DNA of 32,000 nt from Ruminococcus albus 7 = DSM 20455 (lineage in GTDB: Bacteria; Bacillota; Clostridia; Oscillospirales; Ruminococcaceae). The notes under the pieces were generated by a model. It was not told the DNA's origin, ran no database searches, and was given only the letters and a program-made list of their open reading frames with translations. Positions within the stretch are counted from its first letter, which is position 1; each line of letters starts with the position of its first letter. Positions 693 to 19,240 of the stretch are shown here, in pieces. The DNA is taken from NCBI RefSeq assembly GCF_000179635.2, contig NC_014825.1, forward strand, positions 180,001 through 212,000, given 5' to 3'. The position numbers and the translations under genes are program-made.

Positions 693-1277
693 TCAGAGCG
701 TTATGCCCTCTTTTTCACAGTATTCATTGAACGAAAGATTCTTTGTATCCTTTTCTGAAAGATTCAGGTCAGCATCTGTCATACCCTCAGGCATTTCCCA
801 TTCGATACCGATTGTCGGATCATTCCACATCAAACCACCTTCATCATTAGGATACCAGAAGTCCGTAACCTTGTAGCAGAATTCAGCCTCGTCACTGAGT
901 ACGATGAAGCCGTGAGCGAAATTCTTCGGGATAAGGAACTGCTTCTTGTTTTCTTCGGTCAGCTTAATGCCAAACCACTTGCCAAAAGTTTTGCTACCTT
1001 TTCTAAGGTCAACAGCAACATCAAATACCTCGCCCCTTATTACTCTGACAAGCTTATCCTGCGGATGGTTGAACTGATAGTGAAGTCCTCTCAGAACGCC
1101 CTTTGTGGAGCTTGACTGATTGTCCTGAACAAATGTGTAGTTCAGTCCCTCAGCTTCCATGTCCTTCTGATTGTATGTCTCCATGAAGTAACCACGATTG
1201 TCACCATGGACGGCAGGCTCAATAACACACAGCCCTTCGATACCACCAACATTTTTCTGAACTTTTATCTGTCCCAT
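693..1277 (-). CDS. rfbC: dTDP-4-dehydrorhamnose 3,5-epimerase
   Basis: ORF 693..1319 trimmed to the ATG at 1277-1275 (MGQIKVQKN...), which overlaps the rfbD stop (TAATG). RmlC-type motifs [24 protein letters not shown] and IPKNFAHGF. Confidence 0.9.
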
Positions 1278-3207: not shown

Positions 3208-3447
3208 ATCTTTTCTCCTTATAAAATTATGGTTTTTTCATATTCTCGACTTTATCCTTTAATACCATTTTTTGCCCTCATAAATGTGGCATATAATTAA
3301 AATTATTCAACAAACAATCTCTCATTGACAAGAATTAATTGCTTTTTGAATGGCAGTAGTTTAGTGGAGACATATATAACCATGAGCTTACCAAAACTTT
3401 TTAAACTCAAAATTGTTATCTGTAATTTAAATTCAAGCTTAAATAGT

Positions 3448-4530
3448 CTAATTATCTTGCATAAATCCACTTAAAACATCTCTAATTGTATTAAGTTTTT
3501 CAAACCCTGATATATTATCGGGTTCTAGATAGGCTCCTTCACCCCATTCGTTCCAAGCATCTATAATAAGGAAGCCTTTCCCAACCGAAACAGACTTCTT
3601 AATTTGTGAATATACAAGCTGTTTAAATCGAGGAATACTAAAGTTTTTAAATATAGTACAATTGTGAGAGTGACGAGGTGAATTATCCCATTCAGCAAAC
3701 AGTCCCAAATAGTGATTAGGATCATTATCTATTCGCTTTTCTATCAAATCACATACTGAGTCATAATTAAAATAATTTGTGACAAATTTGCCTTTCACCA
3801 GCTTTTTTATTCCTCTTCTAATCCTATTAATAGTATGCTGAAATTTCATTTCTAAAAACGTTGTGTAAGTGGGTTCATAATCAAAACACGCATCAAAATA
3901 TTTCTTGTTCCATATTAAATGATGCCCACCTAATGTTTGAACTAAAAATATACCATTAAAACCATTTTCTTTTGCTAATCGATCCCATCCTTCTCTATAT
4001 ATATTAAAATCAGGAATCGCTTCATAATCATAAATAAACAAAACAGGCTTGTTATCTACTTTGATATATCTATCATCCATAAAATAAGGGAGATATTCAT
4101 AAAAATGCTGTTTTACATCTTCAAAACTTGCTGCGTATTCCTGCTTTCTTAGCATTTGTTTGTTGTATGAAAACCAAGTTCTCATCCAATCATGATTAGC
4201 CCATGAAAAGCAGTATTCTATTCTAATATCTTTATTCATTAGCAGAAGTTTTGCAGGTGTCTCAAGCAGTTTTTTTCCATTCGAATAATATGAGTACATT
4301 ACAAACCCATTTATTCCATATTTATTTGCAAGATCAACTTGATGTCTTATACTTTCAATTCGAGATAGATCATAATAACCTTCAACTGGAATCCTTGGTT
4401 GTTTGATGTAACGATTTAACGGTTTTGCTGATTTAACAACATTCCATTCCGTAAAACCTTCTCCCCACCACTCATTATTTTCTGGGATCTCATGAAATTG
4501 TGGGAGATAAAGTGCTAATATTTTTGGCAT
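3448..4530 (-). CDS. WbsX-like (GH99-like) polysaccharide biosynthesis enzyme
   Basis: The N-terminus ILALYLPQFHEIPENNEWWGEGFTEWNVV matches the hallmark YLPQFH..PEN..WWG.GFTEW of the WbsX glycosyltransferase family. ORF call 3448..4545 begins at a GTG; I prefer the ATG at 4530, which has GAGG 10 nt upstream. Confidence 0.7.
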   Translation of the reverse strand: MPKILALYLPQFHEIPENNEWWGEGFTEWNVVKSAKPLNRYIKQPRIPVEGYYDLSRIESIRHQVDLANKYGINGFVMYSYYSNGKKLLETPAKLLLMNKDIRIEYCFSWANHDWMRTWFSYNKQMLRKQEYAASFEDVKQHFYEYLPYFMDDRYIKVDNKPVLFIYDYEAIPDFNIYREGWDRLAKENGFNGIFLVQTLGGHHLIWNKKYFDACFDYEPTYTTFLEMKFQHTINRIRRGIKKLVKGKFVTNYFNYDSVCDLIEKRIDNDPNHYLGLFAEWDNSPRHSHNCTIFKNFSIPRFKQLVYSQIKKSVSVGKGFLIIDAWNEWGEGAYLEPDNISGFEKLNTIRDVLSGFMQDN

Positions 4531-4541
4531 ATAAATGTACC

Positions 4542-5429
4542 TCACTGCAATTTTAATATATTAACAGCTATATTTTTAGCTGTTCCAAGTAATACCAAAT
4601 AAATAATTCTAAAATAACTCTCTTGGTGTTTAAGCATATCGATAATTCTACTTTTATTCACTTTCCATCCTTGTTTACAGGCATATACTAGTTCATTCTC
4701 TAATCTGATTCTTAACGCATTTGGATATTTTTCATATAAAAGTGAGTATTTCGACACGAGCATAAGTAATCCGTCTAATTTTTTTTTCGAATTCAATGAT
4801 ATTGAGTTCTCATTAATTCTATAATAAGAAAGAGCTTCTTCTATATATCCAATTCTCCCGATTTGAATCATTCTAATGAATAAATCCTGATCTTGATAAG
4901 AGGGCATCTCTTCGTCTAGCATTTTTGAATCTATAAAGCACTGTTTTGTAAAAGATACATTTGAAAACCCACCTAAATAATTATTGGATAGCATTAGTTC
5001 TAATGCATTTTCATATTCTGGATTCTCACGTTTACTATATCGGTGTTTATTTTTACCGAAGATAATAAAGTCTGAATATACAATATCATATCCTTTATGA
5101 AACATTTCAACTATTTTAGAGACTCTTGTATTCTCCCAATAATCATCATCATCCAGAAATGATAAATACATCCCGCTTGATTTCAAAGCACCAAGATTTC
5201 TAGAATAATTTGCGCCCATCTGACGCTCATTAATATAATACTGGATTGCTCCTTGATATGAACGAACCATTTTTTCAATTTGAATATTATATTGATTTGA
5301 GGGAGCATCGTTAACTATGATGATCTCTATGTTACTATACGTTTGTTTAATTACGCTTTCAACCGCCTCTCGAAGTATTTCAACATCTCGATTACAAGTT
5401 GTAATTATCACAGAAAACAATTCTTTCAT
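4542..5429 (-). CDS. family-2 glycosyltransferase
   Basis: FSVIITTCNRDVEILREAVESVIKQTYSNIEIIIVNDAPS followed by a DDDD acidic motif (GT-A/GT2 signature). ATGA overlap with the upstream gene. Confidence 0.8.
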   Translation of the reverse strand: MKELFSVIITTCNRDVEILREAVESVIKQTYSNIEIIIVNDAPSNQYNIQIEKMVRSYQGAIQYYINERQMGANYSRNLGALKSSGMYLSFLDDDDYWENTRVSKIVEMFHKGYDIVYSDFIIFGKNKHRYSKRENPEYENALELMLSNNYLGGFSNVSFTKQCFIDSKMLDEEMPSYQDQDLFIRMIQIGRIGYIEEALSYYRINENSISLNSKKKLDGLLMLVSKYSLLYEKYPNALRIRLENELVYACKQGWKVNKSRIIDMLKHQESYFRIIYLVLLGTAKNIAVNILKLQ

Positions 5430-6085
5430 TTATCCACCTGTACTTTTCGAATGATTTTTGCGGGATTTCCACATATAATGCAGTTTTCAGGAAAACTATG
5501 AGTGACTACACTATTTGCTCCTATTATTGAGTTTTCACCTATTATTACGCCTGAAAGAATACTCACTTTCTCTCCTATCCATACATTTTTACATATATGT
5601 ATTTCACCATTTGATGATAATAACCTTTGATTCGGAGATATATTCAAATCAGAGAAATCAGATAATCCATGATTATGATCTATAATCATAACATCACTTC
5701 CAATTAATACATCATCATCAATGATAATCGAATTAATACAGCCAATATGGCAGCGTTTTCCTATCGAAACATTATTTCCTATAATAATAGATGGGGTGTA
5801 TTTTTTTCCATTATGTTCACTCCAAGTTTCAAATATCCCATTATAATCAAGTTTAAAATTATCCCCAATTTTGCAGTTGTTCAAGCCTTTTAAACTAATA
5901 GGGAAGATAATTCTCGGATTCTTTCCACACGATTTACATTCCATATGAAAAAGTTTCTTGTAGTAGTAAAGCTTGATTTTCAAGCGCAGATTATTCATTT
6001 TTTTTATCATTTTAAAAAGGAAGTAAATCATACTGATTCTCCACCATTCTTTAATATTCATAACGATTTTTGCACCACAGAACAT
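5426..6085 (-). CDS. left-handed beta-helix (hexapeptide) O-acetyltransferase
   Basis: C-terminal half shows hexapeptide periodicity (IGNNVSIGKRCHIGCINSIII..., VWIGEKVSILSGVIIGENSIIGANSVV...CGNPAKIIR). Start is ambiguous: the ORF call at 6211 is a TTG inside the upstream gene, ATGs lie at 6085, 6061, 6010 and 5998, and none has a good RBS. Confidence 0.7.
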   Translation of the reverse strand: MFCGAKIVMNIKEWWRISMIYFLFKMIKKMNNLRLKIKLYYYKKLFHMECKSCGKNPRIIFPISLKGLNNCKIGDNFKLDYNGIFETWSEHNGKKYTPSIIIGNNVSIGKRCHIGCINSIIIDDDVLIGSDVMIIDHNHGLSDFSDLNISPNQRLLSSNGEIHICKNVWIGEKVSILSGVIIGENSIIGANSVVTHSFPENCIICGNPAKIIRKVQVDK

Positions 6086-6087
6086 GT

Positions 6088-7356
6088 TTATTTTAATAAT
6101 AAATAAATAAATATCCACTTCATTATAAATGGTATTCCTGTCAAAGGGTAATTTTGAATTGTTGTCATCGAAAAAGATAACATAAAAATATATTGTCCAA
6201 GACTTAAACAATCTCGTTTATTCGTGTAATTTCTTTCAACATAATGTGCGAAACAGCCTAATAACAATCCGCCTAAAAACGTTCCAACAATTCCAAAATC
6301 CAAATAAAACGGGAATAGAGTTGATGCTGTTGCATTTGTTTGTATTTCATAACCGACAAACAAAAAATCCTTTGCTTGTCCAGACATAGTTTGTTGACCT
6401 GTTAAAAAATCATGACCTATCACTCCTAATGTTCTAAGAAAAACAATTGGAATATCAATAATTGAGCTGAAGGTAGCTTTTCCAAATAAGGTCCACGATT
6501 GACTTGTGCCGTTCTTAATCAGTGCGGATAAGTACGGTAAGCCAGAAAAATAGTAAATTGTTCCTTCTATTATAAGACCATTATCACGATTGATCCTTTT
6601 TGATATAATTTGCACTATAAATATTAATAATACACTACATGGTACAATATACCTTTTATAACCACTTAGTACTTTTTTTATATTAAACCCATTCTTAATA
6701 ACAACTGCCCAAAAAACGTATAATATTATTGTTACGAACAAAGATCTTCCAGCAGTTGCTAACACAAGCCATAACGCATCTAAAATAGACACGATGATCA
6801 ATTGATATTTAAATTTTTTATTTGATATTTCTTCGGCCATTAATAGTATTGTTGCAACCATCACGGGTCGAATAATATAGTCTACCAGCATCAATTCTGG
6901 TGTACTAAATATTGAATACTCTCCGTATGTTCGATATCTCAAGGCGTTCATTCCTTGTGATGGACCATACATTAGTAGTATTGGGATAGTTTTCTTTAGA
7001 ATCGGTATTGACACTATCCAGCATAATATAGATGCAGTAATTACTTTTTTTCTTTGCCTATCACTATTGAATTCAATTTCACCAGATTGTCCTTGTGTTT
7101 CTTCAATCGGTGAAATAAGAAAGACCAAATTATAAGCAACTAAATATGCCATAGCTGCAAAATACACAGTTCCATCAATTGGATAATATGGAACAACATT
7201 TAGCAGATAGATCAAAAATCCTACTAGCCACACCACATTCTGTACTTGTACTGGTCTAACTCGCTTGATTCTGGTTTTATTGGTTTTATATTGTAAGCAC
7301 ATACAGGTAATACATACCACTATCGCCAAAATATTATATATAAAATCCTGTTTCAT
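6088..7356 (-). CDS. polytopic membrane protein, probable Wzy-type repeat-unit polymerase
   Basis: 422 aa, hydrophobic throughout with many predicted TM stretches, embedded among glycosyltransferase genes. GAGGG RBS before the ATG at 7356. Assignment rests on context and topology only. Confidence 0.55.
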   Translation of the reverse strand: MKQDFIYNILAIVVCITCMCLQYKTNKTRIKRVRPVQVQNVVWLVGFLIYLLNVVPYYPIDGTVYFAAMAYLVAYNLVFLISPIEETQGQSGEIEFNSDRQRKKVITASILCWIVSIPILKKTIPILLMYGPSQGMNALRYRTYGEYSIFSTPELMLVDYIIRPVMVATILLMAEEISNKKFKYQLIIVSILDALWLVLATAGRSLFVTIILYVFWAVVIKNGFNIKKVLSGYKRYIVPCSVLLIFIVQIISKRINRDNGLIIEGTIYYFSGLPYLSALIKNGTSQSWTLFGKATFSSIIDIPIVFLRTLGVIGHDFLTGQQTMSGQAKDFLFVGYEIQTNATASTLFPFYLDFGIVGTFLGGLLLGCFAHYVERNYTNKRDCLSLGQYIFMLSFSMTTIQNYPLTGIPFIMKWIFIYLLLK

Positions 7357-7379
7357 TATGCCCTCATATTCATCATCAA

Positions 7380-8072
7380 TTATCTTTTGATTAATGCTAT
7401 TATTATATTTATACGCATTTTCAGTTTCATTCTCAAAGAATACTTACTCTTTTCGCCTGTTTGACTAGCGTTTTTACCATGTCGCCTATATTTAATTAAT
7501 GCGTCATTTATAAATATGCTATTACCGTATTTCTCAGAAATTAGCCCGATCCATACGTCATGCATCGGAATCTCCTTTGGAAACGGTAATACATACTTTA
7601 AGATAGAACGATTGAATGCCATACAGCATCCAATGTAGCTATTTCTTATGATATTTCTCATTAATCCTTTCTTGCAATTTCTCAAATTGAAATATGAGGG
7701 ATTAATAACTATTAAATTCTCATTTACGATTTCTGCATCTGATACTACGCACGTATATTGCTTAAGATACCTTTTCATAACAGATACTTTATTTATCTTC
7801 CAAACATCATCTTGATCAGATAAAAAAATGAAATCACCCGAAGCGTGCTTTAGAGCATTTTCTAAGTTGAATATAGGTGAATTAAAGTGATTATCTAATA
7901 ATAGTTTAATTCTTGGGTCATTAAAAGCTCTAATAATATCAATCGTTGCGTCAGTGGAGGAATCATCGGATATTATAATTTCATCATTTTCATCTAATTG
8001 TTGTAAGATTGAATCAATCTGTTCTTTGATGTATTTTTCACCATTGTATGTTGGAATACATACTGAAACCAT
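7380..8072 (-). CDS. family-2 glycosyltransferase
   Basis: MVSVCIPTYNGEKYIKEQIDSILQQLDENDEIIISDDSSTD ... FLSDQDD (GT2 DxD region). Start moved to the ATG at 8072 because GGAGG lies 8 nt upstream (ORF call 8105). Confidence 0.8.
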   Translation of the reverse strand: MVSVCIPTYNGEKYIKEQIDSILQQLDENDEIIISDDSSTDATIDIIRAFNDPRIKLLLDNHFNSPIFNLENALKHASGDFIFLSDQDDVWKINKVSVMKRYLKQYTCVVSDAEIVNENLIVINPSYFNLRNCKKGLMRNIIRNSYIGCCMAFNRSILKYVLPFPKEIPMHDVWIGLISEKYGNSIFINDALIKYRRHGKNASQTGEKSKYSLRMKLKMRINIIIALIKR

Positions 8073-8196
8073 TACAGCGCCTCCCATTACTAAAAGCGTT
8101 ATCACAATCTAAGGTGAGAGTATGACTATATCTTTAAGAATTTTATAGGCATTAATCACAACAGTTTAAGCTTTTTATTATCCTAATCATTTCAGC

Positions 8197-9303
8197 TTAT
8201 GCTGAATATAGACTTTTCACAACTGTCTCAATTGCCTTATCGATTACAATAGCAGAAAAATTGTTTTCAAAATAACGCCTAACTTGCCCATTGTTTATAA
8301 TAGAAAAGTCAATACCACCCATATAATCAGTACCATAGTTCAATCCAATACGCTTATTTTCAACAATATCCCAGATATCACCCTTAATATTATTAATAAT
8401 AGGGAGTCCTGCTTCAAAATAATCCATGCTTTTCATCGTTAATCCTACAAAAACAGTGTCCTTCATAATATTCAATCCAAAGTGACATCTGTCCATAATC
8501 GCCTGTTTTTCCTCTGGATCATATATCTTACCATGATATACTACATTCGCTCCCGCTTGCTTAGCAGTTGAAATCAGTTCATCACGTTTTTCACCATCAC
8601 CGATAATATGGAGATCAACAGGTTTTTGATGCTTTATCTGTTGAATTATTCTTCCTATAGTCGGAATATCTATTATATTATTTATTGAACCTAAATAACA
8701 CAAAGATATTCTGTCATCGGGCGGATTTGGATTTCCAATATAAGGCTTTATTTCTCTTGCAAGATATACTGTTGTCATCTTACTTTTCGGTACAAACTCA
8801 ATTAGTTTTGTTTGAAACAAATCGCACTCTGTCACAACATGATCAGCACAATTAATCCATTTATCACGTAGATTTGCCCACATTGGAATAACTGGCAAGC
8901 TCTTTATTTTTTCAATTGGCATTGTTTCAGGCCACATATCAATGATATCAAATATCAGTTTCACAGTCGGATGGCTCTTTTTGAAAAGAGCAGCTTGTCG
9001 TACCAGTGAATTGGGCGGAACAAGAACCCAGAGTAAATCCACTTTTTGATGCTCTAATCGTTCAAAAACATCTTTAGCAAATTTTGCATGAGACAGCATC
9101 CGGCTTGGTGATATGTTTTTATAATACGGTCTCGCATGAATATATAGGAAATTCTTCTTTATGTCTTTTCGAACGGATTTCTCAATATGTCGGAAATCAG
9201 AAGTATATACCCTTACCTTATTTCCTTGTTTACTAAAGAAATCATATAATAAGTCAACCCTATGCTCATATGTATCAAAGCAGTTAACAATAGCTACATT
9301 CAT
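8197..9303 (-). CDS. putative GT-B fold (GT4-like) glycosyltransferase
   Basis: The C-terminal half (HIIGDGEKRDELISTAKQAGANVVYHGKI...GLTMKSMDYFEAGLPIINN) resembles the retaining GT-B nucleotide-sugar domain with an E-x7-E-like region. ATGA overlap with the upstream PGT gene. Confidence 0.55.
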   Translation of the reverse strand: MNVAIVNCFDTYEHRVDLLYDFFSKQGNKVRVYTSDFRHIEKSVRKDIKKNFLYIHARPYYKNISPSRMLSHAKFAKDVFERLEHQKVDLLWVLVPPNSLVRQAALFKKSHPTVKLIFDIIDMWPETMPIEKIKSLPVIPMWANLRDKWINCADHVVTECDLFQTKLIEFVPKSKMTTVYLAREIKPYIGNPNPPDDRISLCYLGSINNIIDIPTIGRIIQQIKHQKPVDLHIIGDGEKRDELISTAKQAGANVVYHGKIYDPEEKQAIMDRCHFGLNIMKDTVFVGLTMKSMDYFEAGLPIINNIKGDIWDIVENKRIGLNYGTDYMGGIDFSIINNGQVRRYFENNFSAIVIDKAIETVVKSLYSA

Positions 9304-11198
9304 GCAAAATCATTCTCCGTCTTCTCAATAGATTCCTTCAGTCCATTCACTCTGTAATCAATGCCATCATAGTTGCTAAGTGCCTGATCAATTGTTAGAC
9401 TGCCGAATGCCTTATGAACTAAGTCGCTCACCTTACCCGGCACTTTGCTACCAATAACAACAAACGGATTCAAAGCCTTTGTCTCTGTGATATTGCTTTC
9501 TACAACATGGCTGATCATTCTGACCATATCACTCGTCTTTGTGTACTCAGCATTCTGTGGAAAGAAAATACCACCAGAACCTGAAAGCATAATCTGACAG
9601 AGAAACTCCGTCAGATTGTCAATATGAAGCATGGAGCGTGCATTGTCAATATTCGGGAACACAGGCAGCTTCTTAGCGAGTTTAGCCAGAGTTGGATAGT
9701 TACCCTTGCTGCCTCTTCCGTAAATCATAGGAGGACGGAGAACTGCGACATTGAAGTCCTCTGAAGCCAGCTTTCTGATGCCCTTATCAGCCTGCCACTT
9801 GCTGTCGCCGTAGAAGTTTGCAGGTGAAGGCACAGTGGTTGCGGTAATCCTCTTGCTCTCACCATATCCAGCCGAATCGCCATAGATTATGATAGAGCTC
9901 ATAAACACAAACTGCTTCACGCCGTCCTTTTTAGCCTTTTCAGCAGTTTCAATGGCAAGATCCGTATTAACTGCATAATACTTCTGCTTTGTGGCATCAT
10001 CAACATGACCAACATCCGCATGAGCAAGACCAGCGACATGGAATACAACATCATAGCCGGAGAAATCCTTTTCTCTCCATGAACCGTCAATCATGTCAAC
10101 TGTGTCTATCTCAAGATTAGGATAGTGTTCTGCTGCCCACGCTTCAAAACTTGTGCCAATATAGGAATCAGCACCAGTGATGAGGATACGAAGAGGCTTG
10201 TCCTTATCAATAGAGAAAACCTTCTTGAATCCATAGTCATCAACGCCAGCATCGAAGAGAGCATGATCAGGTATTCCTGCCTTACTGATTTCTCTTGCAA
10301 TTGCACCGGTGCCGCCTTCAACAATACCTTTACTATGCAATGTAGCAGAGATAGAACCAAGAAACATCTTGATATCCATAAGGAAACCCGCAAGACTTGA
10401 TGATTTTAACGCTTTCGCATATACTCCATCCAGTTTCGCCTTCTCCTCAATCTCAAGCTCATCTCTACCTGAAATCTGTGCAAGTCCAGTTAGACCGGGC
10501 TTGACATCGTTTGCGCCGTACTTGTCACGCTCGGCAGTCAAGTAGTCCTGATTCCAGAGAGCAGGACGTGGACCAATCACGCTCATGTTGCCGCAGAAGA
10601 TGTTCCACAGTTGTGGCAACTCGTCGATACTTGTCTTGCGAATTACCGCACCGACCTTTGTGATACCACCGTCCTTGAGCATATGAGTCGGGACATCCTT
10701 CGGAGTATTTACGGACATCGATCTAAATTTAAGTAACTGGAAATATGATTTGTCCGTGCCGACACGCTTTTGCTTGAACAGAACAGGACCCGGATCATCT
10801 TTCTTAATCGCAATTGCAGTTGCAGCATAGATAGGCGAAAGAACGACAAGACCGCCGAAAGAGAGAACAACGTCAAAGCCACGCTTGATGTACTTTTCAT
10901 AAAAGGTTGGGAGGTGTTCAGATTCTCCGACAGCTTCTAGATGACCACACCTGCCGTCAGCATTCGCAGGCTCATTCTCATTTTCAACAAAAACTACCTT
11001 CTTGCCCTCCATCGGATTCTGTTCTTCCGGCTGATTGGCATAGGTAGCCTGTGGCTGCTGTTTCTTTGCAATATGTCTCATAACTAAGAATGTCGTGCCA
11101 AGTACAATACCCGTGGCTGCCGCCGCAGTTTTAAGATTCTTTTTTGTCTTCTCTTCCAACTCTGTATCCTCACTTAATCTCATATTCCTTATAATCAT
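9300..11198 (-). CDS. initiating monotopic phosphoglycosyl transferase fused to a C-terminal SDR epimerase/dehydratase domain
   Basis: N-terminal TM segment. FKQKRVG, KFRSM and [10 protein letters not shown]...GPRP motifs of PglC/WbaP-type sugar transferases at aa ~100-290. Aa ~335-632 carry the Rossmann [14 protein letters not shown] and the catalytic YGDSK (YxxxK). Confidence 0.8.
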
Positions 11199-11245
11199 TC
11201 TTTTACGAACTCTTATCTTTAACCCTTATAAAAGAGATAGCTAAA

Positions 11246-11800
11246 TCACTTTCCCGAAGCCATAGCATACCAGTTATCATCATGCACTTCAATCTGCTTA
11301 ACTTCTTCCCCAGTCTCAACTTCTCCCGTCCAGCTCATATTGCTCTCGACCTTCGTGCCTGCCGGAACTGTAGAAGCCTTCATAACTGAGCTATTACAGT
11401 CGATATGGCAACAATCTTCGAGCACACAGTCATGGTTGACGACCGCACCTGCGGAGATGAAACAGCCGATACCGACATTCGCTCCCGTGTGGACAACAGC
11501 CATCGGCTCGACCACACAGCCGGTAGAAACCACTGCACTTGGCGATACATAGGCGTGTGGTGAGATAAGACTCACAACTCTGCTCTTATCAATCTTCTCA
11601 AGCATCCTTCCACGCACTTCTGCATTACCAATAGCGACGATCACATCGCTCTCGAACTTATCCACATCATCAGGCGTACCGATTGCTTTATCCGATTTTC
11701 CATCCAGGAAGTCGATTTTCTCATATCCAAGTTCCTCTGCGATTTCTTTGGCTATCATTCCGTACTGTCCTGCGCCAATGATCAATAAGTTGTCACGCAT
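11246..11800 (-). CDS. NeuD/PglD-family sugar N/O-acetyltransferase (copy A)
   Basis: LLIIGAGQYG N-terminal Rossmann-like motif followed by a hexapeptide-repeat C-terminal half. ORF call 11246..11911 trimmed to the ATG at 11800-11798, which has a GGGGGGGA RBS. Confidence 0.75.
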   Translation of the reverse strand: MRDNLLIIGAGQYGMIAKEIAEELGYEKIDFLDGKSDKAIGTPDDVDKFESDVIVAIGNAEVRGRMLEKIDKSRVVSLISPHAYVSPSAVVSTGCVVEPMAVVHTGANVGIGCFISAGAVVNHDCVLEDCCHIDCNSSVMKASTVPAGTKVESNMSWTGEVETGEEVKQIEVHDDNWYAMASGK

Positions 11801-11876
11801 TGTGATCCCCCCCTGTCTACAAGCCACAGACCGATGAGTATGTGTGGACAACCACACGCTGGTCTGGGAAATAACG

Positions 11877-11905
11877 TTTATATATGCTGATGTTCCTTCA
11901 AACAA
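11877..11905 (-). promoter_or_regulatory. candidate sigma-70-type promoter for the acetyltransferase A / PGT operon
   Basis: On the minus strand TTGTTT-N17-TATAAA, ~75 nt upstream of the ATG at 11800. A 6-bp/4-nt-loop palindrome GTGTGGacaaCCACAC (11842-11857) lies in the leader. Sequence match only. Confidence 0.3.
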
Positions 11906-11978
11906 GCTCATATCAGCCTCTGTGCGGAAAGCATAATCTATCCACTCACAGCAGCTTATATCAGCCTGTTAAAACATC

Positions 11979-12231
11979 TCTGCTCTCCCTATGAGTTAGG
12001 AAGTGTGTAACTTCTGCTCAACTTCCACACACTCTACTATCTCATATTCTCTTTGAAAACCACGCTAAATCGGCGTTTTTCACACATTCCCATTTTGTTA
12101 CACTCTCTATTCTGCTCTCCCTATGACTTACGAGGTGTGTATTTCGTCACAAAAACGCTGTTTTCGGCTCGTTTTAGCCTATTTTAGCTCCTATTCTATA
12201 TCTGCTCTACCTACGGATTAGTAGTTGCATA
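11979..12231. repeat. three degenerate ~31-bp direct repeats in a non-coding junction
   Basis: Copies at 11979-12009 (TCTGCTCTCCCTATGAGTTAGGAAGTGTGTA), 12111-12141 (28/31 identical to the first) and 12201-12231 (22/31). Spacing is irregular (132 and 90 nt). Confidence 0.7.
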
Positions 12232-12279
12232 AATATGTATAATACGCGAAAATGTCGATTTTACGTTGTTTTCGTGATG

Positions 12280-12732
12280 TCATGCAACTCCTACATCGAG
12301 TAATTTCATCAGCTCAAAGTAACCCTTTGACTGGGCAACGCGCTTCTGCTTGAATATAGCGGGACCCGGATCGTCGCATTTTATCGCTATCGCTGCAAAT
12401 GCGTAGAGCGGCGAAAGAACAACCATACCTCCGAATGAAAGCACCACATCAAGTCCGCGCTTTACATACTTCTCATAAAAAGTCGGTGTATGATTGCATA
12501 CTCCGACAGCCTCAAGATGTCCGTTTTTGCCGTCGGCATTAATTGGGTCGTTGTTGTCCTCAACAAATACGACCTTTTTGCCCTTCATGGGGTTCTGCTC
12601 CTCAGGGCGGTCGGCGTATTCGGACTTCGGCTTCTGTTTCTTTGCAATAGCTCGCATAACAACGAAAGCCGCACCAAGCGCAACACCCGAATATGTAGCT
12701 GTCTTTATCAGTTTCTTTTTGAAATCGGACAT
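12280..12732 (-). pseudogene. 5' fragment of a second phosphoglycosyl transferase gene (truncated paralog of 9300..11198)
   Basis: Colinear with aa ~20-165 of the 632-aa PGT ([56 protein letters not shown]). Frame and homology are lost at the KFRSM motif (~12290), and the catalytic DE dyad region and SDR domain are missing. Confidence 0.75.
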
Positions 12733-12747
12733 TTCTCCACCCACTTT

Positions 12748-13236
12748 TCAGAAAATCTTGCCGTAATCGACCTTTGTTTTCGGCGGTACCGTCTGATTCG
12801 AGCGAACCGTTGCGTTGCAATCGATGTGGCACCCCTCACCGACAACCGAATTGTGATTGACCACAGCGCCGCTCGAAATGATACAGCACCGATCTACCTT
12901 GACTGCGGTGCTTATCACCGACATTGGCTCGATAACGCACCCCTCGGCTATTTTTGCAGATGGGCTAACATAAGCCTTCGGACTGATGAACGACACAATC
13001 TCGTACCCCGCGGCTTTCAGCTTGTCCGTGACCGCAAGGCGGATATCGGCGTCGCCTATCGCCACAATTGCGCACTGGTACCTGTCGGTGAACTTTGCGC
13101 AGTCCGCAAGTGTACCGATTGCCTCTTCACTGTGGTCATCTAGGAAATCTATTTTATCATAAAGATTCAGCGCACGCGCCGACTCCTTTAGCATAGCGCC
13201 GTACTGTCCCGCGCCGATTATCAGTAAATTATTCAT
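12748..13236 (-). CDS. NeuD/PglD-family acetyltransferase (copy B)
   Basis: MNNLLIIGAGQYG plus a hexapeptide C-terminal half, alignable along its whole length with copy A. The ATG at 13236 overlaps the stop of the upstream small ORF (ATGA). Confidence 0.75.
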   Translation of the reverse strand: MNNLLIIGAGQYGAMLKESARALNLYDKIDFLDDHSEEAIGTLADCAKFTDRYQCAIVAIGDADIRLAVTDKLKAAGYEIVSFISPKAYVSPSAKIAEGCVIEPMSVISTAVKVDRCCIISSGAVVNHNSVVGEGCHIDCNATVRSNQTVPPKTKVDYGKIF

Positions 13237-13472
13237 CAGAAAAAGTCCGCCTGTTCTTCGCCCGTCCAATTCATATCGTTCAGGCGATCATTTTCAACAA
13301 GTTTTACAAACACCTTACTGCCCCTCGCAGCCAATGACTCAATGCAAAACAGCTTAGAAAACGTAGTTTCAGCTAACGCCTTTCCATCAGCGAATTCCAT
13401 CTGCTTATCCTCAATCACCGCAACAACCGGTGACTCGATCTTCGCCACAAACCGCTCGACCCTATAAGTCAT
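13236..13472 (-). CDS. hypothetical 78-aa protein
   Basis: Open frame with a GGTGAG RBS and an ATGA stop/start overlap with acetyltransferase B. No recognisable motif. Confidence 0.4.
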   Translation of the reverse strand: MTYRVERFVAKIESPVVAVIEDKQMEFADGKALAETTFSKLFCIESLAARGSKVFVKLVENDRLNDMNWTGEEQADFF

Positions 13473-13581
13473 AATAATCTCACCAATTTATTTCCCAAAC
13501 TAATAAAATTTGTCAAAAGCCCCAAAAAAGCACTGTATAATCAACTTTTCAGACACCATTGACGAATACCTGATGTTAGCT

Positions 13582-15804
13582 TTAAAGATCTTTGCAAATA
13601 TTCATCAGCAGTTCAGCCAACTCATCTGTCAGCTTACCCTGCCGTTTCTTCTGCATCTGAGTACACCGCCACTTAACAAGGTCAAGGTCATTATAGCGAT
13701 CCTTACTCGCTGGGTGTCTGCCGAACTTTTGCAGGTACTCCATGTAACTGTCGTAGTATTTCATAAAGACTTCGTTTTTGCGTCTCTGACGCAGATTTTC
13801 AAGCGGTATGCCAGCCTCTTTAAACCGCTCGACGCGGTGCGCCTGCATATTTCCGGCTAAATACAAAACGACCTGACTTTTATACCATTTTCCCAGCTTG
13901 TATCCATCAACAACCTCATTGATGCCCGGCAGGCTGCCAAACTCTTTGAAATAGCTTCTAAGCCTATTGAAAGCGTTCAACCACTCTTCTTCATGTTTGT
14001 CCCAGGTAAAACCAATCGAATCAAGCATCGCAATACGTTCTTCCGACAGCTGCCCGCGATACCTTGCGGTACGCTGAGAGTTCGCCCAAACGTATAGAAC
14101 CTTTAATTCCGGGTCTAACTTTACATCGGCATAATTCGGGAAACGTCCATGCTGCTTCACGAATTCGCCGAGCCTATCACAGTTATCCTGCCAATACTCT
14201 GCCATACCCTTAGTGATCTCGCAGCCCAGCGCAATAAGCTTTTGGACTTTGTCTTCCTCAAGCGTACCATTGCGGTACTTGTTTTTTTGCGTTGTGACCC
14301 ATCTGTACAGACTTGTCTTGTCCGAACCGAACTCCGATTTTTTCGGGAAATGCCCGAGCGATTCAGTGATTGATTTCAGTTCTTCAAAATACATCTGCCA
14401 GCTTGCCTCATTGACATTCCACGGAAAACAGATACAGTTGAGCTTGTCAACACGATTCTTTGACAGCTTGCCCTGATTGTTCAGAGTTCGCTGCTGATTA
14501 GCCCATTTGCCGATCAGAACTCCCTCATAAGAGATATTTCCGTCCGGGAAAGCATGATACTTCTCGGCGTACTCTTTGAGCAGCTCGAAGTTGAAATCCC
14601 AACTGTTGGCGAAAGTGTCATTCAACTCATTGAGTATCTCTCTGATGTCACGAACGTAGTCATACAACTCAAATTCGATCTCATCATCGTAATCGCCCTC
14701 ACCTCGGGCTATTTCCATGAAACCGGCGTACTGCTGTGCCGTATCGCCTGTTTCGTAGTTGTTTACAATATCGAAGATCAGAGGTTTTTTCTTTGAGTCG
14801 GAGCAAGCCAGCGCCCGCCCGAGCTGCTGATAGAAAACGTTTGCAGACTGCGTGGCGCGGAGCATGATGACCCCGTCCACGTCGTCGAAGTGAACGCCCT
14901 CGTTCAGCATATCAATGCAAAACAGCAGCTTTAATACATTACTGTCCTTATCACTCCTGAACTCCTCGAATTGTTTGTTCGACGCGCTGTTCTGAGCGTA
15001 GACCGTGTATTTATGAATATCGCGGTTGACTTTCGTGAACCACGAGTCGCATTCGCTGACCATTCTATGAAGCTGTTCCACGCTCGGACAGAAGACAATG
15101 AACTTGCCCGCCTTGTTGCGGATATGCTTCTCGAATATTTTGTCAATGCCGACATCAAGTTCGGCAATCATCGACTTTGCTTTTCTAATCTTACCCAGCA
15201 AGGCACTTTTCAGTCTCGGATTGCCCGACTGCTCGGCTTTCATTTCAAGCTGTTCTATGTCACCCCTGAAAGAATACCATGAGGTAACATATATCGGCAG
15301 TGGAAGTATCTTTCTGCGAATTGCCTCAGCCAAACTCATGTTCACGGCATAGACACCGTTAAACAGTTCGTCCGCCATGTTCCGTCCGCTGTCGAGATAG
15401 CGTATCGGAGTTGCCGACGTTCCGAACACCTTAGCACTCGGGTTGCCGTCAAGCAATCTCTGTACACCCTGCCCCCACTCATCAGCACCGCAGCGGTGAA
15501 ACTCGTCCAGTACGATGTAGTTGTACTCAGAGAACGCTTCGGTCTGCGACAGCTTGGTATATGTGAGAAAATCGGTGTTATCAAGTGAAATCCTGTTCTC
15601 GTCAGCAAGCGACTTCATCTGCTCAAATATGTAAGTCGATGGAGAGCAGACCGCAAAACGCTTATCGGCATTATCCTCGATGAGCTGCATGATGAGGTAG
15701 CTTTTGCCCGTTCCCGTAGGCTGCACCGCAGCGACCCTCTGCTCCGTCTGAAAAAGGCCCACCATGTTTGCATAAGTTTCACTATTGTGTTTATGCAAAA
15801 ACAT
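13582..15804 (-). CDS. DEAD/DEAH-box (SF2) helicase with five C-terminal helicase-associated (HA) repeats
   Basis: Motif I QPTGTGKS, motif II VLDEFH, motif III GTSATP, motif VI QQLGRALA. The C-terminal ~340 aa (13582-14601) is five ~65-aa repeats of pattern W..[FL]..L..[FY]....G..P...........L..W...Q+......L....+..L...G. Start set to the ATG at 15804 (AGGTGAGGA RBS). Confidence 0.8.
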   Translation of the reverse strand: MFLHKHNSETYANMVGLFQTEQRVAAVQPTGTGKSYLIMQLIEDNADKRFAVCSPSTYIFEQMKSLADENRISLDNTDFLTYTKLSQTEAFSEYNYIVLDEFHRCGADEWGQGVQRLLDGNPSAKVFGTSATPIRYLDSGRNMADELFNGVYAVNMSLAEAIRRKILPLPIYVTSWYSFRGDIEQLEMKAEQSGNPRLKSALLGKIRKAKSMIAELDVGIDKIFEKHIRNKAGKFIVFCPSVEQLHRMVSECDSWFTKVNRDIHKYTVYAQNSASNKQFEEFRSDKDSNVLKLLFCIDMLNEGVHFDDVDGVIMLRATQSANVFYQQLGRALACSDSKKKPLIFDIVNNYETGDTAQQYAGFMEIARGEGDYDDEIEFELYDYVRDIREILNELNDTFANSWDFNFELLKEYAEKYHAFPDGNISYEGVLIGKWANQQRTLNNQGKLSKNRVDKLNCICFPWNVNEASWQMYFEELKSITESLGHFPKKSEFGSDKTSLYRWVTTQKNKYRNGTLEEDKVQKLIALGCEITKGMAEYWQDNCDRLGEFVKQHGRFPNYADVKLDPELKVLYVWANSQRTARYRGQLSEERIAMLDSIGFTWDKHEEEWLNAFNRLRSYFKEFGSLPGINEVVDGYKLGKWYKSQVVLYLAGNMQAHRVERFKEAGIPLENLRQRRKNEVFMKYYDSYMEYLQKFGRHPASKDRYNDLDLVKWRCTQMQKKRQGKLTDELAELLMNICKDL

Positions 15805-15840
15805 AGTCCTCACCTTCTCAGATATTTAGAAATAATTGGA

Positions 15841-15869
15841 ATTATTTTTCTCAAATCAACTTATTTCAA
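15841..15869 (-). promoter_or_regulatory. candidate promoter of the helicase gene
   Basis: Minus strand TTGAAA-N17-AATAAT, ~35 nt upstream of the ATG at 15804. Sequence match only. Confidence 0.3.
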
Positions 15870-15875
15870 GAAAAG

Positions 15876-16063: not shown

Positions 16064-17143
16064 ATGAGTACAGGAACCACGTACTTACGAAAGGACGGAC
16101 GTTGGGAAACAAGGGTTTCCCTTGGAGTTGTTGACGGCAAACGTCAGACAAAGTCATTCTACGGGCGCACAAAAGAGGAAGCCGAGGGCAAGATGATGGC
16201 TGAGGTCATGAACGGTATGAGCTTTCAGATAACGGGACTTACCGTCAAGGCGCTATGTATGGAATGGCTGTCGGTCAACAGCCACAGGGTCAAGGTATCC
16301 ACGCAGGCTAATTATATGACAAAATTTGAAAAGCACATTCTACCGTACTTTGGCGATAAAATGTGCTATGAGATCACTTCAAAAACAGTCTATGGGTTCA
16401 TACAGGCGAAACTCGATGAGGGGCTTTCTGCTGGATATGTTTCCAACATTCTGGTGCTGCTGAAAACTGTTTTCAAGTACGCGCAGAAGGAGTACCACAT
16501 TCTCAATCCCTTTGACAACGTCATCATGCCCAAAAGTACAAAGTCCGAAACTCGTCTGCTGACGAAGAAGGAGCAGAAAAAGCTAAAGGAATACCTGAAA
16601 AGCAACGTCAATACAGCAACCCTCGGCATTTCACTTGCTATTTCTATGGGGCTGCGCATTGGTGAGATTTGCGGTCTAACTTGGCAGGATATTGACTTTA
16701 AGTGCCGCACTCTGACCGTCAGGCGGACAGTACAGCGTATTCGGGTGAAAGGCGAAGCAAAAAAGACAAAGATCGTCATTCTGCCGCCTAAAAGTAAAAG
16801 TTCCTTCCGCGAGATACCCATTCCCACGAGTGTGTTTGCTATGCTCAAAAACCTGCGGAGCACGCCCGAACACTACATATTGAGCGACAGCACCGAGCCA
16901 AAAGAACCGCGAATGATGTACTATGACTACGTCGAGATTCTGAAAGAACTCGGTCTTCCGTCCGTTAAATTCCATAGCCTTCGTCACGCCGCTGCGAGCA
17001 ACGCTATCGAAGCCGGATTCGATGTTAAGACGCTTTCCGAGGTATTAGGACACTCGCGGATAGAAATGACAATGAATCTTTATGTGCATTCCAACATGGA
17101 CAGGAAGCGCAAGCTGATGGACAAGCTGGATATAGATACCTAA
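16064..17143 (+). CDS. tyrosine-type site-specific recombinase/integrase (int1)
   Basis: GLRIGEICGLTWQDID (catalytic R), HSLRHAAAS (HxxR), LGHS and LYVHS (nucleophile Y). Start set to the ATG at 16064 with a GGAGG RBS (ORF call 16034 is an upstream TTG). Confidence 0.9.
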   Translation: MSTGTTYLRKDGRWETRVSLGVVDGKRQTKSFYGRTKEEAEGKMMAEVMNGMSFQITGLTVKALCMEWLSVNSHRVKVSTQANYMTKFEKHILPYFGDKMCYEITSKTVYGFIQAKLDEGLSAGYVSNILVLLKTVFKYAQKEYHILNPFDNVIMPKSTKSETRLLTKKEQKKLKEYLKSNVNTATLGISLAISMGLRIGEICGLTWQDIDFKCRTLTVRRTVQRIRVKGEAKKTKIVILPPKSKSSFREIPIPTSVFAMLKNLRSTPEHYILSDSTEPKEPRMMYYDYVEILKELGLPSVKFHSLRHAAASNAIEAGFDVKTLSEVLGHSRIEMTMNLYVHSNMDRKRKLMDKLDIDT

Positions 17144-17245
17144 CGTCAATTATTCGTCAAAAAACCGTCGGGGATAGCTCCATAAAATGGCGCTATCCCG
17201 CGATATTTCGACGTATTGCCGCAAATTAAGTTGTTTTGTTACAAA

Positions 17246-17289
17246 CCGAGATAGCACTTCCCTGCGCTATTTCGGTATTTTCATTTTTT
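17246..17289 (+). terminator. hairpin plus T-tract between convergent int1 and the SLOG gene
   Basis: CCGAGATAGC (17246-17255) pairs with GCTATTTCGG (17266-17275), giving a 10-bp stem with one G-U and a 10-nt loop, followed by TATTTTCATTTTTT. A related 8-bp hairpin GGGATAGC/GCTATCCC lies at 17171-17199. Confidence 0.5.
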
Positions 17290-17745
17290 AAGCAGATTTA
17301 TTATCCGTTTTCCACATTTTTCAGCATACTTCATCGCCTTAGCCGCTCCGCCGCCTTTTTCAACAGCACAGATCACAAGGTCACTGCGGTCAACCATGCT
17401 TTTGTTTCTCTCATAGATAGCCGCCTTCGGATGCGCTGCCGCAGCTTCGGAACAGATCTCGACTTCATCATAATAGGCTTCGTAGCTTTCACGATTATCA
17501 CGGTATTCCGCCCGTTCATACGGCAGCACAAGTATCAGCGACGCATTTCCGCAAGCGTAGTCATCGATCGCCTTTCGTACAGTTGAAGCCGCCAGCTGAT
17601 CGAAATCGCCGTCCCTGCCTACAAGAAATTCGACGTACTCTTTTGATTTTATCAATTCCCGCAGAATTGTGAGCAGTCTTTTCTCCAGCGCAAACATATT
17701 CGGCAGTTTCCTATGCCCGAAAAACGTCACCGTGTAAATATTCAT
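17281..17745 (-). CDS. SLOG-superfamily protein (DUF1273 / YpsA-like)
   Basis: N-terminal TFFGHRKL, VGRDGDFDQLAA glycine-rich loop, ERNKSMVDRSDLVICAV and GGAAKAMKYAEKCGKRIINL match the pattern I associate with clostridial DUF1273 proteins. GAGG RBS. Confidence 0.65.
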   Translation of the reverse strand: MNIYTVTFFGHRKLPNMFALEKRLLTILRELIKSKEYVEFLVGRDGDFDQLAASTVRKAIDDYACGNASLILVLPYERAEYRDNRESYEAYYDEVEICSEAAAAHPKAAIYERNKSMVDRSDLVICAVEKGGGAAKAMKYAEKCGKRIINLLKK

Positions 17746-17849
17746 ACCGCACCGCCTCAGAATCCGCTTAGGAAATCCGACGAAATTTTTACCGTCAACT
17801 TGCTTTTTGAAAGTCGATAAAGTATAATAAATACGTGGGGTTTATGACT

Positions 17850-17869
17850 TTTCGCAAAGTCTGTGATTT
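17850..17869. repeat. left arm of a perfect 20-bp inverted repeat (IRL)
   Basis: TTTCGCAAAGTCTGTGATTT is the exact reverse complement of 19127-19146. It overlaps the internal palindrome GACTTT-tcgc-AAAGTC (17846-17861). Confidence 0.95.
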
Positions 17870-17935
17870 CAGGGCGAAACTGTTCAGAAGCCCGATTTTA
17901 CAGGCTATTTATATTTTCCTTGACGGCAAATTACG

Positions 17936-19021
17936 TTAAGCTCCCATCGTCATGAGGTCCATGCAGGACTTCTTGTGGCTCATTGACGAATGCACATATC
18001 GGTCAAGAGTAATCTGGGACGACGAGTGTCCGAGTATCTCAGAGAGCGTCTTAACGTCAAATCCGATCTCAATCGCTTCTGAAGCCATTTTATGGCGGAG
18101 ACTATGGTAGGTGAAGCTGCCGAGCCCGAGCCTGTTAAGTATGCTCTTAAATCGGTATTGCAGCGTTCTCGGCTCAATAGGCGTACCCGTTCCCGTCAGC
18201 ACATAGCTGTCGGGCTTTCTTTTTAACTCCGTAAGCATCGGCACAAGGCACTCGGGAATGGGTATCTCACGCTTGGATGACTGGCTTTTAGGCTCTGTTA
18301 TGATGATTTTTGTCTTGCTTTTGCCGTCATAATTCTGTATGCGCTGTATAGTGTGTCTGACGTAAAGCACACGCTTTTCTATGTCAATATCCTGCCAGCT
18401 GAGAGCACAAACCTCGCCTATTCTCATGCCCGTAAAAAGCGACAGCGCCACGGCGAGAGTCGTTTCGTTATGGTTCGTATTTATGTAGTACACGAGCTTT
18501 CTCTTTTCCTCGGCAGTCATAATATTTATCTCGGGCTTCGCTTTCTTGGGCATCACCACGCCCTCGATCACGTTTGTAATGTTGTACTCGTTCGCTGCAT
18601 AGCGGTACATCGCCTTCATCACTGTAATTATATCGCCCACATACCTTGCTGAAAGCCCCTGACTCAGCTTTTTCTGGATAAATTCGGAGATCATCCTTGT
18701 CTTGATCGAAGCGCATACTTTAGCCCCAAATTCGGGCAGTATATGGCGTTCTATTTTCATGCGGTAGTTGGAAGCGGTGGAATCCTTTATCCTGTTTTTC
18801 ATAACAAAAAGCCATTCCCACGCAAGCTCTCTGACGGTCATTACCGTTATGCTCTCACCGCTTGTGTTCCTGCCGCCTGTTTCCTCCATCATCTTGTATT
18901 CCGCTTCTTCCTGCGTTTTACCGTAGAAGGAGCGGTATTTTTTATGTCCGTCTTTATCTTCAACACGAATGCGGCACTCCCAGCGCCCGTCCTTTCTTTT
19001 GTACGTTGTTCCCTTATTCAT
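17936..19021 (-). CDS. tyrosine-type site-specific recombinase (int2), paralog of int1
   Basis: GMRIGEVCALSWQDID, HSLRHKMAS, LGHS and RYVHS. Colinear with int1 from GTTY.RKDGRWE to the C-terminus. TTG start at 19021-19019 preceded by GGAGG. Confidence 0.9.
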   Translation of the reverse strand: MNKGTTYKRKDGRWECRIRVEDKDGHKKYRSFYGKTQEEAEYKMMEETGGRNTSGESITVMTVRELAWEWLFVMKNRIKDSTASNYRMKIERHILPEFGAKVCASIKTRMISEFIQKKLSQGLSARYVGDIITVMKAMYRYAANEYNITNVIEGVVMPKKAKPEINIMTAEEKRKLVYYINTNHNETTLAVALSLFTGMRIGEVCALSWQDIDIEKRVLYVRHTIQRIQNYDGKSKTKIIITEPKSQSSKREIPIPECLVPMLTELKRKPDSYVLTGTGTPIEPRTLQYRFKSILNRLGLGSFTYHSLRHKMASEAIEIGFDVKTLSEILGHSSSQITLDRYVHSSMSHKKSCMDLMTMGA

Positions 19022-19060
19022 ATATTCCTCCGTTTAATTCTTACTTTTTACATTTTTTTC

Positions 19061-19090
19061 ATTGACAAACACCGCAAAATCGTGTATAAT
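19061..19090 (+). promoter_or_regulatory. consensus sigma-70-type promoter pointing away from int2
   Basis: TTGACA (19061-19066), 18-nt spacer, TATAAT (19085-19090). Both hexamers are perfect. Confidence 0.55.
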
Positions 19091-19126
19091 AGTAGTGTTG
19101 AGATAGTGCTATGATGGCATTTCTCA

Positions 19127-19146
19127 AAATCACAGACTTTGCGAAA
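19127..19146. repeat. right arm of the perfect 20-bp inverted repeat (IRR)
   Basis: AAATCACAGACTTTGCGAAA is the exact reverse complement of 17850-17869. A partial extra half-site GACTTTTGCG lies at 19164-19173. Confidence 0.95.
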
Positions 19147-19202
19147 CCCTTACAGCAAAAAAAGACTTTTGCGCTGTATAGGGCTTTTTTTATAAAAATT
19201 TT

Positions 19203-19240
19203 TCCGGGGACGATGACGGCACCGCCCCGGATTTTTACCG
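19203..19240. terminator. GC hairpin flanked by A/T tracts just downstream of the 1424-aa gene (possibly bidirectional)
   Basis: TCCGGGG (19203-19209) pairs with CCCCGGA (19225-19231) around a 15-nt loop. It is preceded by AAAAATTTTT and followed by TTTTTA on the plus strand. Confidence 0.5.

Follow-up and report, generated by a model that had tools for sequence, protein, structure and literature searches.

What is a recombinase gene doing between two perfect inverted repeats, in the company of a consensus promoter that points away from it? The question is raised by positions 17850-19146 of a 32,000-nucleotide (nt) stretch of Ruminococcus albus 7 (= DSM 20455; contig NC_014825.1, positions 180,001 to 212,000 of the forward strand), the whole of which is here called the window. 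The likely answer is that this segment, cassette A, is a self-contained invertible promoter cassette: Int2, the tyrosine recombinase that it encodes, would flip it, and its promoter, P_A, would thereby turn ON an adjacent gene for a 154-amino acid (aa) protein of SLOG fold. The core of this, a recombinase and an outward promoter inside a flipping segment with the 154-aa gene as output, was proposed in an initial annotation of the window, and both the architecture of a cassette family and inversions in homologues now support it. That annotation saw a single switch. Cassette A stands, but a paralogous second unit in tandem with it, cassette B with the recombinase gene int1, had been overlooked. 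Sequence comparisons support the switch at the level of the family and by one homologous flip of the A type; for the present copy we infer its flipping, the driving of the SLOG-fold gene by P_A and the mechanism of the orientation bias. The features of cassette A and its immediate surroundings, in window coordinates, are these.

17281..17745, minus strand: the 154-aa gene, encoding a SLOG-fold protein, between cassettes A and B; predicted output of cassette A
17800..17828, plus strand: P_ext, a weak promoter-like TTGCTT-N17-TATAAT outside the left arm, aimed into cassette A
17850..17869, no strand: left arm of cassette A, downstream of int2 on the side of the 154-aa gene; putative recombination core site
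17936..19021, minus strand: int2, encoding a 361-aa tyrosine recombinase (Phage_integrase, 1.6e-27; Phage_int_SAM_3, 2.3e-10)
19062..19090, plus strand: P_A, with TTGACA at 19062-19067, a 17-nt spacer and TATAAT at 19085-19090 (12/12), pointing away from int2
19127..19146, no strand: right arm of cassette A, upstream of int2; homology between Ruminococcus sp. YE71 and the window ends at its outer edge
19147..19237, plus strand: two terminator-like hairpins with U-runs, directly outside the right arm

The left arm, TTTCGCAAAGTCTGTGATTT at 17850-17869, is the exact reverse complement of the right arm at 19127-19146, and 1257 nt separate them; the coordinates and the perfection first given for this 20-base pair (bp) repeat are thus borne out. 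No other perfect inverted repeat of 20 nt or more is present in the window. With up to 3 mismatches allowed, the 20-mer has two window sites and no third, and 100 dinucleotide-preserving shuffles contained no match at all. Uniqueness in the window together with the shuffles rules out a chance origin, which had been considered improbable from the start. Just one credible gene is seen between the arms, int2, again as first described, and a small open reading frame (ORF) that spans the right arm (19111-19317) is without counterpart in the homologous contig L059. The arms are identical in R. albus AR67, YE71 and contigs L022 and L025, though the flanks are just 88-92% identical, and the AR67 and YE71 genomes each have just two copies of the 20-mer, those that bracket int2. 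Each arm with its next bases forms an imperfect dyad, TCGCAAAAT, 5-6 nt and ATTTnAnGA, which would have the shape of a complete tyrosine-recombinase core site. The sub-structure that was initially read into the arms is another matter. The palindrome at 17846-17861 and the GACTTTTGCG at 19164-19173 both occur in the window sequence, but the former is not kept in L059 or L026 and the latter, thought to be an extra half-site, sits within the stem-loop of the first terminator hairpin.

The start codon of int2 at 19021 is ATG and not, as had been reported, TTG. The catalytic residues of its product (R200, H306-x-x-R309, H332 and Y342) are invariant in nine aligned family members, Int1 among them. 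Int2 matches tyrosine Phage_integrase only and no serine recombinase (resolvase/invertase) model. Nor is it of FimB/FimE type: models NF007370 and NF007371 give 19-26 bits against cut-offs of 221-222, and proteins of that class have ~200 aa and a single catalytic domain, whereas Int2 has 361 aa and an N-terminal SAM-like domain. Its score is also far under the cut-offs of the NCBIfam integron-integrase models.

By its match to consensus, P_A is an outward promoter inside the segment. The match is perfect, as the initial annotation had it, though the spacer is 17 nt rather than 18 and the start is 19062 rather than 19061. In the orientation sequenced P_A faces the two hairpins, the first at 19147-19183 followed by U7, and the second at 19204-19230 followed by AUUUUUA; the RNA from 19095 to 19250 has a predicted folding energy of -48.1 kcal/mol (z = -4.4). 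It was the second of these that had been noticed before, and the other terminator-like hairpin precedes it. On the opposite side, promoters of the small gene were scanned in seven loci (the window, L059, L026, L067, L080, L086 and L009). The weak inward-facing promoter reported outside the left arm at 17800-17828, P_ext, is present, and each of the seven has an equivalent (TTGC[A/T]T or TTGTAT, N17/18, TATAAT) in the corresponding position. For the 154-aa gene of the window the scan gave no sense promoter, as the initial annotation had also found. A sense promoter of its own is missing for the small gene in 5 of the 7 loci.

Is this arrangement peculiar to one locus? In Ruminococcus/Oscillospiraceae metagenomes the Int2 family has at least 120 matches, 52-93% identical to Int2 among those listed, and many members are alone on short contigs of 1.3-2 kilobases (kb), some on 0.7 kb. 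The viral contig collection has no relative, and the plasmid collection has just integrases of less than 38% identity and no DNA match. Twelve distinct cassettes were compared, from the window, AR67, YE71, L011, L026, L043/L059, L045, L051 and L067, with recombinases of 47-72% protein identity to Int2. The layout of arm, outward antisense promoter, int and arm is present in every one. The inverted repeats around int are 18-32 nt long, with outer edges 117-212 nt before its start and 89-110 nt past its stop. The outward promoter matches consensus at 12/12 positions in nine cassettes and at 10-11/12 in the remainder. Its spacer is 17 nt throughout, and none of the 12 has a sense promoter for int of comparable quality.

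The arms of the family have a motif in common, TTTCGCAAA(A/G)T, ~4 variable bases and (T/G)ATTT. The variable bases differ from cassette to cassette and are equal in both arms of any one cassette; in the 72%-identical lineage of L043/L059 the same G-to-A change is in both arms (TCTGTG to TCTATG). The variants are as follows.

GTCTGTGA: window, cassette A
GTCTATGA: L043/L059, A type
ATTCAGTA: L026, A type
ATTGAGTA: L011
ATTATTGA: L051
ATATGGTA: L026, B type

Whether such repeats are conserved beside homologous recombinases had been posed as a check on the proposal, and they are kept, and co-vary, in the 12 cassettes. The neighbours of family cassettes are various: an LRR/dockerin surface protein gene (L011, 3817-5186), a large serine recombinase gene with an SNF2/nSTAND3 gene (L051, ~3830-5200) and the gene for a 1379-aa VWA/TSP3 protein (L086, 3761-6474). 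The range suggests that such modules serve to vary outputs of many kinds.

The second member of the family in the window is the neighbour of the 154-aa gene on its other side.

15847-17246 (~15850-17236), no strand: cassette B, a paralogous unit of the same design as cassette A
15847..15870, no strand: left arm of cassette B, helicase side; breakpoints in the comparisons with L010 and L009
15948..15976, minus strand: P_B, a perfect TTGACA-N17-TATAAT with a TG extension, pointing away from int1 to the helicase/polysaccharide operon
16064..17143, plus strand: int1, encoding a tyrosine recombinase 49% identical to Int2; sole gene in cassette B
17220..17246, no strand: right arm of cassette B (degenerate), on the side of the 154-aa gene; breakpoint in the comparison with L010; CAACTTA core common to the left arm
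693..15813, minus strand: genes predicted to be switched by cassette B, the first for a helicase with HA domains and the rest a polysaccharide biosynthesis operon of ~13 kb

The arms of cassette B are degenerate, with ~15 of 20 positions matching around the CAACTTA core; AR67 has the consensus form TTTCGCAAATCAACTTATTT at the position of the left arm. In the present orientation a transcript from P_B would have ~137 nt of leader ahead of the helicase start codon (ATG, 15804). The polysaccharide operon has genes for PglD-like acetyltransferases, Bac_transf, several glycosyltransferases, WbsX and RmlB/C/D-like enzymes.

In natural populations, as represented by independent rumen and gut metagenome assemblies, homologous cassettes of both A and B type are found inverted in situ with breakpoints at the arms. 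The gene order of L026 is MobL-Sel1, intA, a gene for a 159-aa protein, intB, a 61-aa ORF, glycosyltransferase and UDP-glucose dehydrogenase, an arrangement that matches the window; the 159-aa product is 63% identical to that of the position-equivalent 154-aa gene. Contigs of other samples encode the identical IntB protein within the same flanks and in the opposite orientation. L030, L033 and L034 carry an inverted copy, 100% identical, of positions 3836-5182 of L026 (1347 nt, B type); where the alignments break they overlap by the perfect 21-nt arms, and contig L035 (1425 nt) starts exactly at the outer edge of an arm. In a second lineage, L059, the order is that of the window (ArdC/YodL, int, a 160-aa gene, int and helicase with HA domains). 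Positions 4000-5370 of L059, also B type, have an inverted counterpart of 99.85% identity in L061, and L066 (846 nt) contains the flipped junction once more. The int1 allele of YE71 is divergent (73% DNA identity) and in the orientation opposite to that of the window; its flanks are colinear and it has an 18-nt inverted repeat of its own. B-type cassettes are known in both orientations in three lineages, and of the two types B is the one flipped more often. For the A type the junction is in L033 (L033/L077): the 159-aa-gene flank continues through the arm into that end of the intA cassette which has the promoter, over 116 nt at 100% identity. The outward promoter there, TTGACT-N17-TATACT, faces the 159-aa gene. 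It follows from this junction that an A-type cassette can flip too, and the consequence foreseen in the initial annotation, that a flip puts the promoter before the SLOG gene, is seen for the int2-equivalent cassette. The comparison of homologous loci that it recommended has thus given both orientations in relatives, and one orientation only for the exact int2 copy.

The protein that would be switched matches no Pfam or NCBIfam model at an expect value (E) below 0.001. Its affiliation to the SLOG superfamily holds at fold level, on structure prediction: the AlphaFold model (38 sequences used, predicted local distance difference test score 81) has DprA, ShosA, the ThsA SLOG domain, LOG and TM1055 as top Foldseek matches, with E from 3.6e-5 to 1e-2 and template modelling scores of about 0.5-0.6. 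Of the SLOG/DUF1273 label initially given, the SLOG part is retained in this sense and the DUF1273 part is not; Pfam DUF1273 has no match to the protein even at E < 10, and the sole weak match is Nuc_deoxyrib_tr at E 0.12. It is identical to an R. albus entry at NCBI. There are ~2,100 homologues, and each named match listed has 'hypothetical' as its source name. Many of the homologous genes are alone on contigs of 700-1000 nt (P0219 with 709, P0232 with 716, P0122 with 726 and P0196 with 750 nt, for example). This is about the size of the inter-cassette segment, and such contigs would result if flipping cassettes interrupted the assembly on either side.

How might the switch work? Int2 would act on the two 20-bp arms, each comprising TCGCAAA(A/G)T, a spacer of ~5-6 bp and ATTTnAnGA, and recombination of these inverted sites would flip the 1.3-kb segment. 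In the OFF state, that sequenced, a transcript initiated by P_A at ~19097 would cross the right arm and meet the hairpins (19147-19193 and 19204-19237). In the ON state P_A would be at ~17935-17906 on the minus strand and transcription would pass across the left arm into the 154-aa gene (ATG at 17745), with a predicted leader of ~150 nt, close to that which P_B has at present. P_ext would be sense to int2 in the flipped state only and so return ON cells to OFF. Orientational control is known for FimE in the fim system, and the proposed orientation-dependent expression of int2 would be FimE-like. Such a P_ext-driven return to OFF would explain why assemblies are nearly always OFF. Cassette B has the same design and would at present be ON toward the helicase gene and the polysaccharide operon.

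Several observations weigh against this interpretation. The flipped form of exact cassette A is in none of the strain of the window, AR67, YE71, the metagenome-assembled genome (MAG) RUI073, L022 and L025. The arm 20-mer was scanned for in genome and metagenome contigs, and each homologous match is in the as-sequenced orientation: AR67 (92% identical), YE71, two MAG RUI073 contigs, L022, L025 and the Logan contigs with the exact proteins (arm matches in L008, L023 and L024 are isolated chance matches without further homology). In all ~45 contigs that hold the small gene the A-type int is on the strand of that gene, the L033 junction being the sole exception, and this flipped A-type evidence consists of 116 nt at the end of a single megahit contig. 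The promoter scan did not find a convincing sense promoter for int2. A-type cassettes, furthermore, nearly always adjoin terminal genes of a conjugative element, ArdC/YodL or MobL-Sel1, always on the same strand, so that Int2 could serve such an element in addition to the switch or in place of it.

The number of contigs that display the one orientation should be read with the sampling in mind. The exact Int2 and 154-aa proteins are each matched on 24 contigs, and those aligned are 99.97-100% identical to the window, so that they represent one strain sequenced repeatedly rather than independent samples. A 41-kb contig of the strain of the window (SRR6829569) stops 2 nt past the left arm. Among contig ends as a whole, L005 stops at arm +2, the start of L035 falls at an arm and L078 runs up to the inner edge of one. 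These ends are suggestive of a signature of mixed orientation, against which L042 and L041 end away from arms; recurrent ends 825 nt past int in L012-L020 were set aside, being due to internal repeats of the LRR/dockerin gene. Perfect arms over flanks that have diverged by 8-12%, the co-varying change and the end of the SRR6829569 contig argue that the copy is still active. Single-base insertions or deletions split int1, the helicase gene or int2 in L002/L037 (SRR059974) and L041 (SRR059968), contigs of 99.97-99.98% identity; these are most likely sequencing errors and not real pseudogenes.

The neighbourhood of conjugative-element genes has a different potential meaning, that Int2 is chiefly the integrase of an adjacent conjugative or mobilisable element (with ArdC/YodL, DUF3848/3849 and SNF2 genes), that the arms are copies of its attachment core and that inversion is a side reaction or a regulator of the element. 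The size of Int2, its N-terminal SAM-like domain and its score far under the FimB/E cut-off would suit an integrase, as would the fact that YE71 and the window cease to be homologous precisely where the right arm ends on its outer side (19146/19147). Beyond that arm YE71 (L009, 2880-2960) has a SWIM zinc-finger gene where the window has the ArdC/YodL gene; its cassette and 154-aa gene adjoin the SWIM-finger gene, and the initial description of the output gene as borne by an integrative and conjugative element is at most tentative. This reading is unlikely. The paralogues of B type have the same architecture away from conjugative-element genes and flip in situ, no third arm copy is present in the 13 kb of element DNA in the window (up to 3 mismatches) and no exact one in the AR67 and YE71 genomes, and a perfect outward promoter facing a terminator is hard to fit to a plain integration module. 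Because the flanking sites are inverted and not direct, excision is impossible. The attL/attR arrangement, direct core repeats with the integrase inside one end, is not what is found here, though a short degenerate core may lie at the distant end. Even less to be expected is that cassette A is a locked relic, fixed OFF in R. albus within a family that otherwise inverts, its 154-aa gene expressed, if at all, by read-through from int2. The single orientation in every assembly would accord with that, and the two genes are co-directional, 190 nt apart and without a strong terminator between them in that direction; but int2 is intact with all its catalytic residues, the arms are perfect and identical across flanks diverged by 8-12%, arm changes co-vary in the 72%-identical lineage, and one contig of the same strain breaks at an arm. 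We consider a relic very improbable.

The cassettes could also be mobile, ~1.3-kb 'integrase plus promoter' elements that insert at TTTCGCAAA-type sites, with the inverted repeats as their termini, so that differences in orientation reflect independent insertions. Contexts are diverse (MobL/LRR-dockerin, serine recombinase/SNF2, VWA surface protein) and many members are on contigs of 1.3-2 kb. The Ruminococcus RUI073 MAG contig L010 is without cassette B and keeps one composite site: at 1330-1440, compared with 15866/17220 of the window, it has both outer arm halves, TCGCAAAT-CAACTT-TTTTGTTAC. Recombination of inverted sites is not expected to remove the intervening DNA, which implies either that a quasi-palindromic core permits both alignments or that the cassette is gained and lost as a unit. 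In YE71 the divergent int1 allele is at the same site in the opposite orientation, and the flank changes exactly at the outer edge of the arm. Both orientations are, however, known for cassettes of 100% and 99.85% identity whose flanks are identical and whose breakpoints are at the arms. That means inversion and not re-insertion, and there are no target-site duplications. As an explanation of the orientation differences, independent insertion is quite improbable; as 'portable switches', mobile cassettes are compatible with the invertible-promoter explanation rather than exclusive of it.

A wider and more tentative scheme, which we regard as possible though doubtful, would have portable self-inverting promoter-recombinase cassettes at TTTCGCAAA-type sites, with the tandem of cassette A, SLOG-fold gene and cassette B as a hierarchical two-switch circuit in which A gates B. 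The cassettes would be gained, lost and swapped, and adjacent polysaccharide operons, LRR/dockerin, VWA and helicase or defence-like genes phase-varied. With cassette A ON, the SLOG-fold gene would be expressed with read-through to the recombinase of B, such that a rarely fired master gates the polysaccharide switch.

Much is known of promoter-inversion phase variation in Bacteroides, E. coli and C. difficile. To our knowledge hardly any case has come from Ruminococcus, a group whose members are key fibre degraders in the rumen and the human gut. The closest counterpart in logic is Salmonella Hin/hix, where a recombinase gene and an outward promoter are also inside a segment of ~1 kb with short inverted repeats, and the flip connects or disconnects an adjacent gene. 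The likeness had been drawn initially, with a tyrosine recombinase in place of Hin, and the layout and the domains of Int2 uphold it. Hin, though, is a serine invertase which needs Fis and an enhancer, whereas Int2 is a 361-aa tyrosine recombinase of integrase type, and the Ruminococcus cassettes form a tandem pair and belong to a family that is large in Ruminococcus/Oscillospiraceae metagenomes. In fimS with FimB/FimE, C. difficile RecV and the Bacteroides Tsr/capsular polysaccharide invertons a tyrosine recombinase does invert a promoter flanked by short inverted repeats, with surface outputs that include polysaccharide, but the recombinase is encoded outside an inverton of 200-700 bp and not, as here, inside a 1.3-kb cassette. 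In phase-variable Type I restriction-modification loci the inverting DNA can include a tyrosine recombinase gene, which in S. pneumoniae ivr/cod is placed between hsdS genes. What is shuffled there is the coding sequence for hsdS target recognition; here it is a consensus promoter, and coding sequence is unaltered. Integrons (intI, Pc and attI) resemble the cassettes in that a strong promoter, divergent from an adjacent tyrosine recombinase gene, reads across a recombination site toward downstream genes, and differ in having attC cassettes and one attI, instead of two inverted sites; Int2 also misses the integrase cut-offs.

Survey tools of the PhaseFinder type reportedly cap the size of inverted segments, and if so, 1.3-kb cassettes with their own recombinase would be systematically missed. 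The literature searched (many subscription papers lie outside it) contains no description of this architecture in Ruminococcus. Recombinases encoded 'near or inside' invertible regions have been noted (PMC7672463, PMC9881135), and in a gut inverton survey of the PhaseFinder type those of Clostridia were short with recombinases nearby and external (PMC11892184). Promoter inversion itself is known. What would be new is that a self-contained promoter switch of Hin-like logic uses an integrase-type tyrosine recombinase, and that two such units stand in tandem; the second cassette facing a polysaccharide operon, and the size of the family, add to its interest. If the proposal is correct, it would explain variation in exopolysaccharide and surface proteins in these Gram-positive commensals, with a bearing on phage resistance, fibre adhesion and immune visibility. 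It would also explain the fragmentation of metagenome assemblies at such loci, many family members having a contig of 0.7-2 kb to themselves. Synthetic biology in Firmicutes would gain compact self-contained toggles of ~1.3 kb with a consensus promoter.

The large genes of the window are all on the minus strand, int1 excepted. Their order on that strand is an SNF2-like helicase gene, a DUF3848 trio, an ArdC-N/DUF3849/YodL gene (1424 aa), cassette A, the 154-aa gene, int1, the helicase gene and the polysaccharide operon; the SNF2-like, DUF3848 and ArdC-N/DUF3849/YodL genes are accessory genes of the conjugative-element type. The DUF3848 trio, at 24049-27385 in this conjugative-element-like region, comprises three tandem paralogues (371, 364 and 377 aa), each with a C-terminal DUF3848. 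One of its genes and int1 contain the two copies of a perfect 16-nt inverted repeat (16589-16604 and 24534-24549) which are 7.9 kb apart, have no supporting features and are probably due to chance. In the polysaccharide region of the window, 9300-13269 contains duplicated polysaccharide initiation modules. There are two genes for PglD-like acetyltransferases (11246-11911 and 12748-13269); the ORF at 12280-12744 matches just the start of the Bac_transf model, and 9300-11198 encodes a 632-aa Bac_transf-epimerase fusion.

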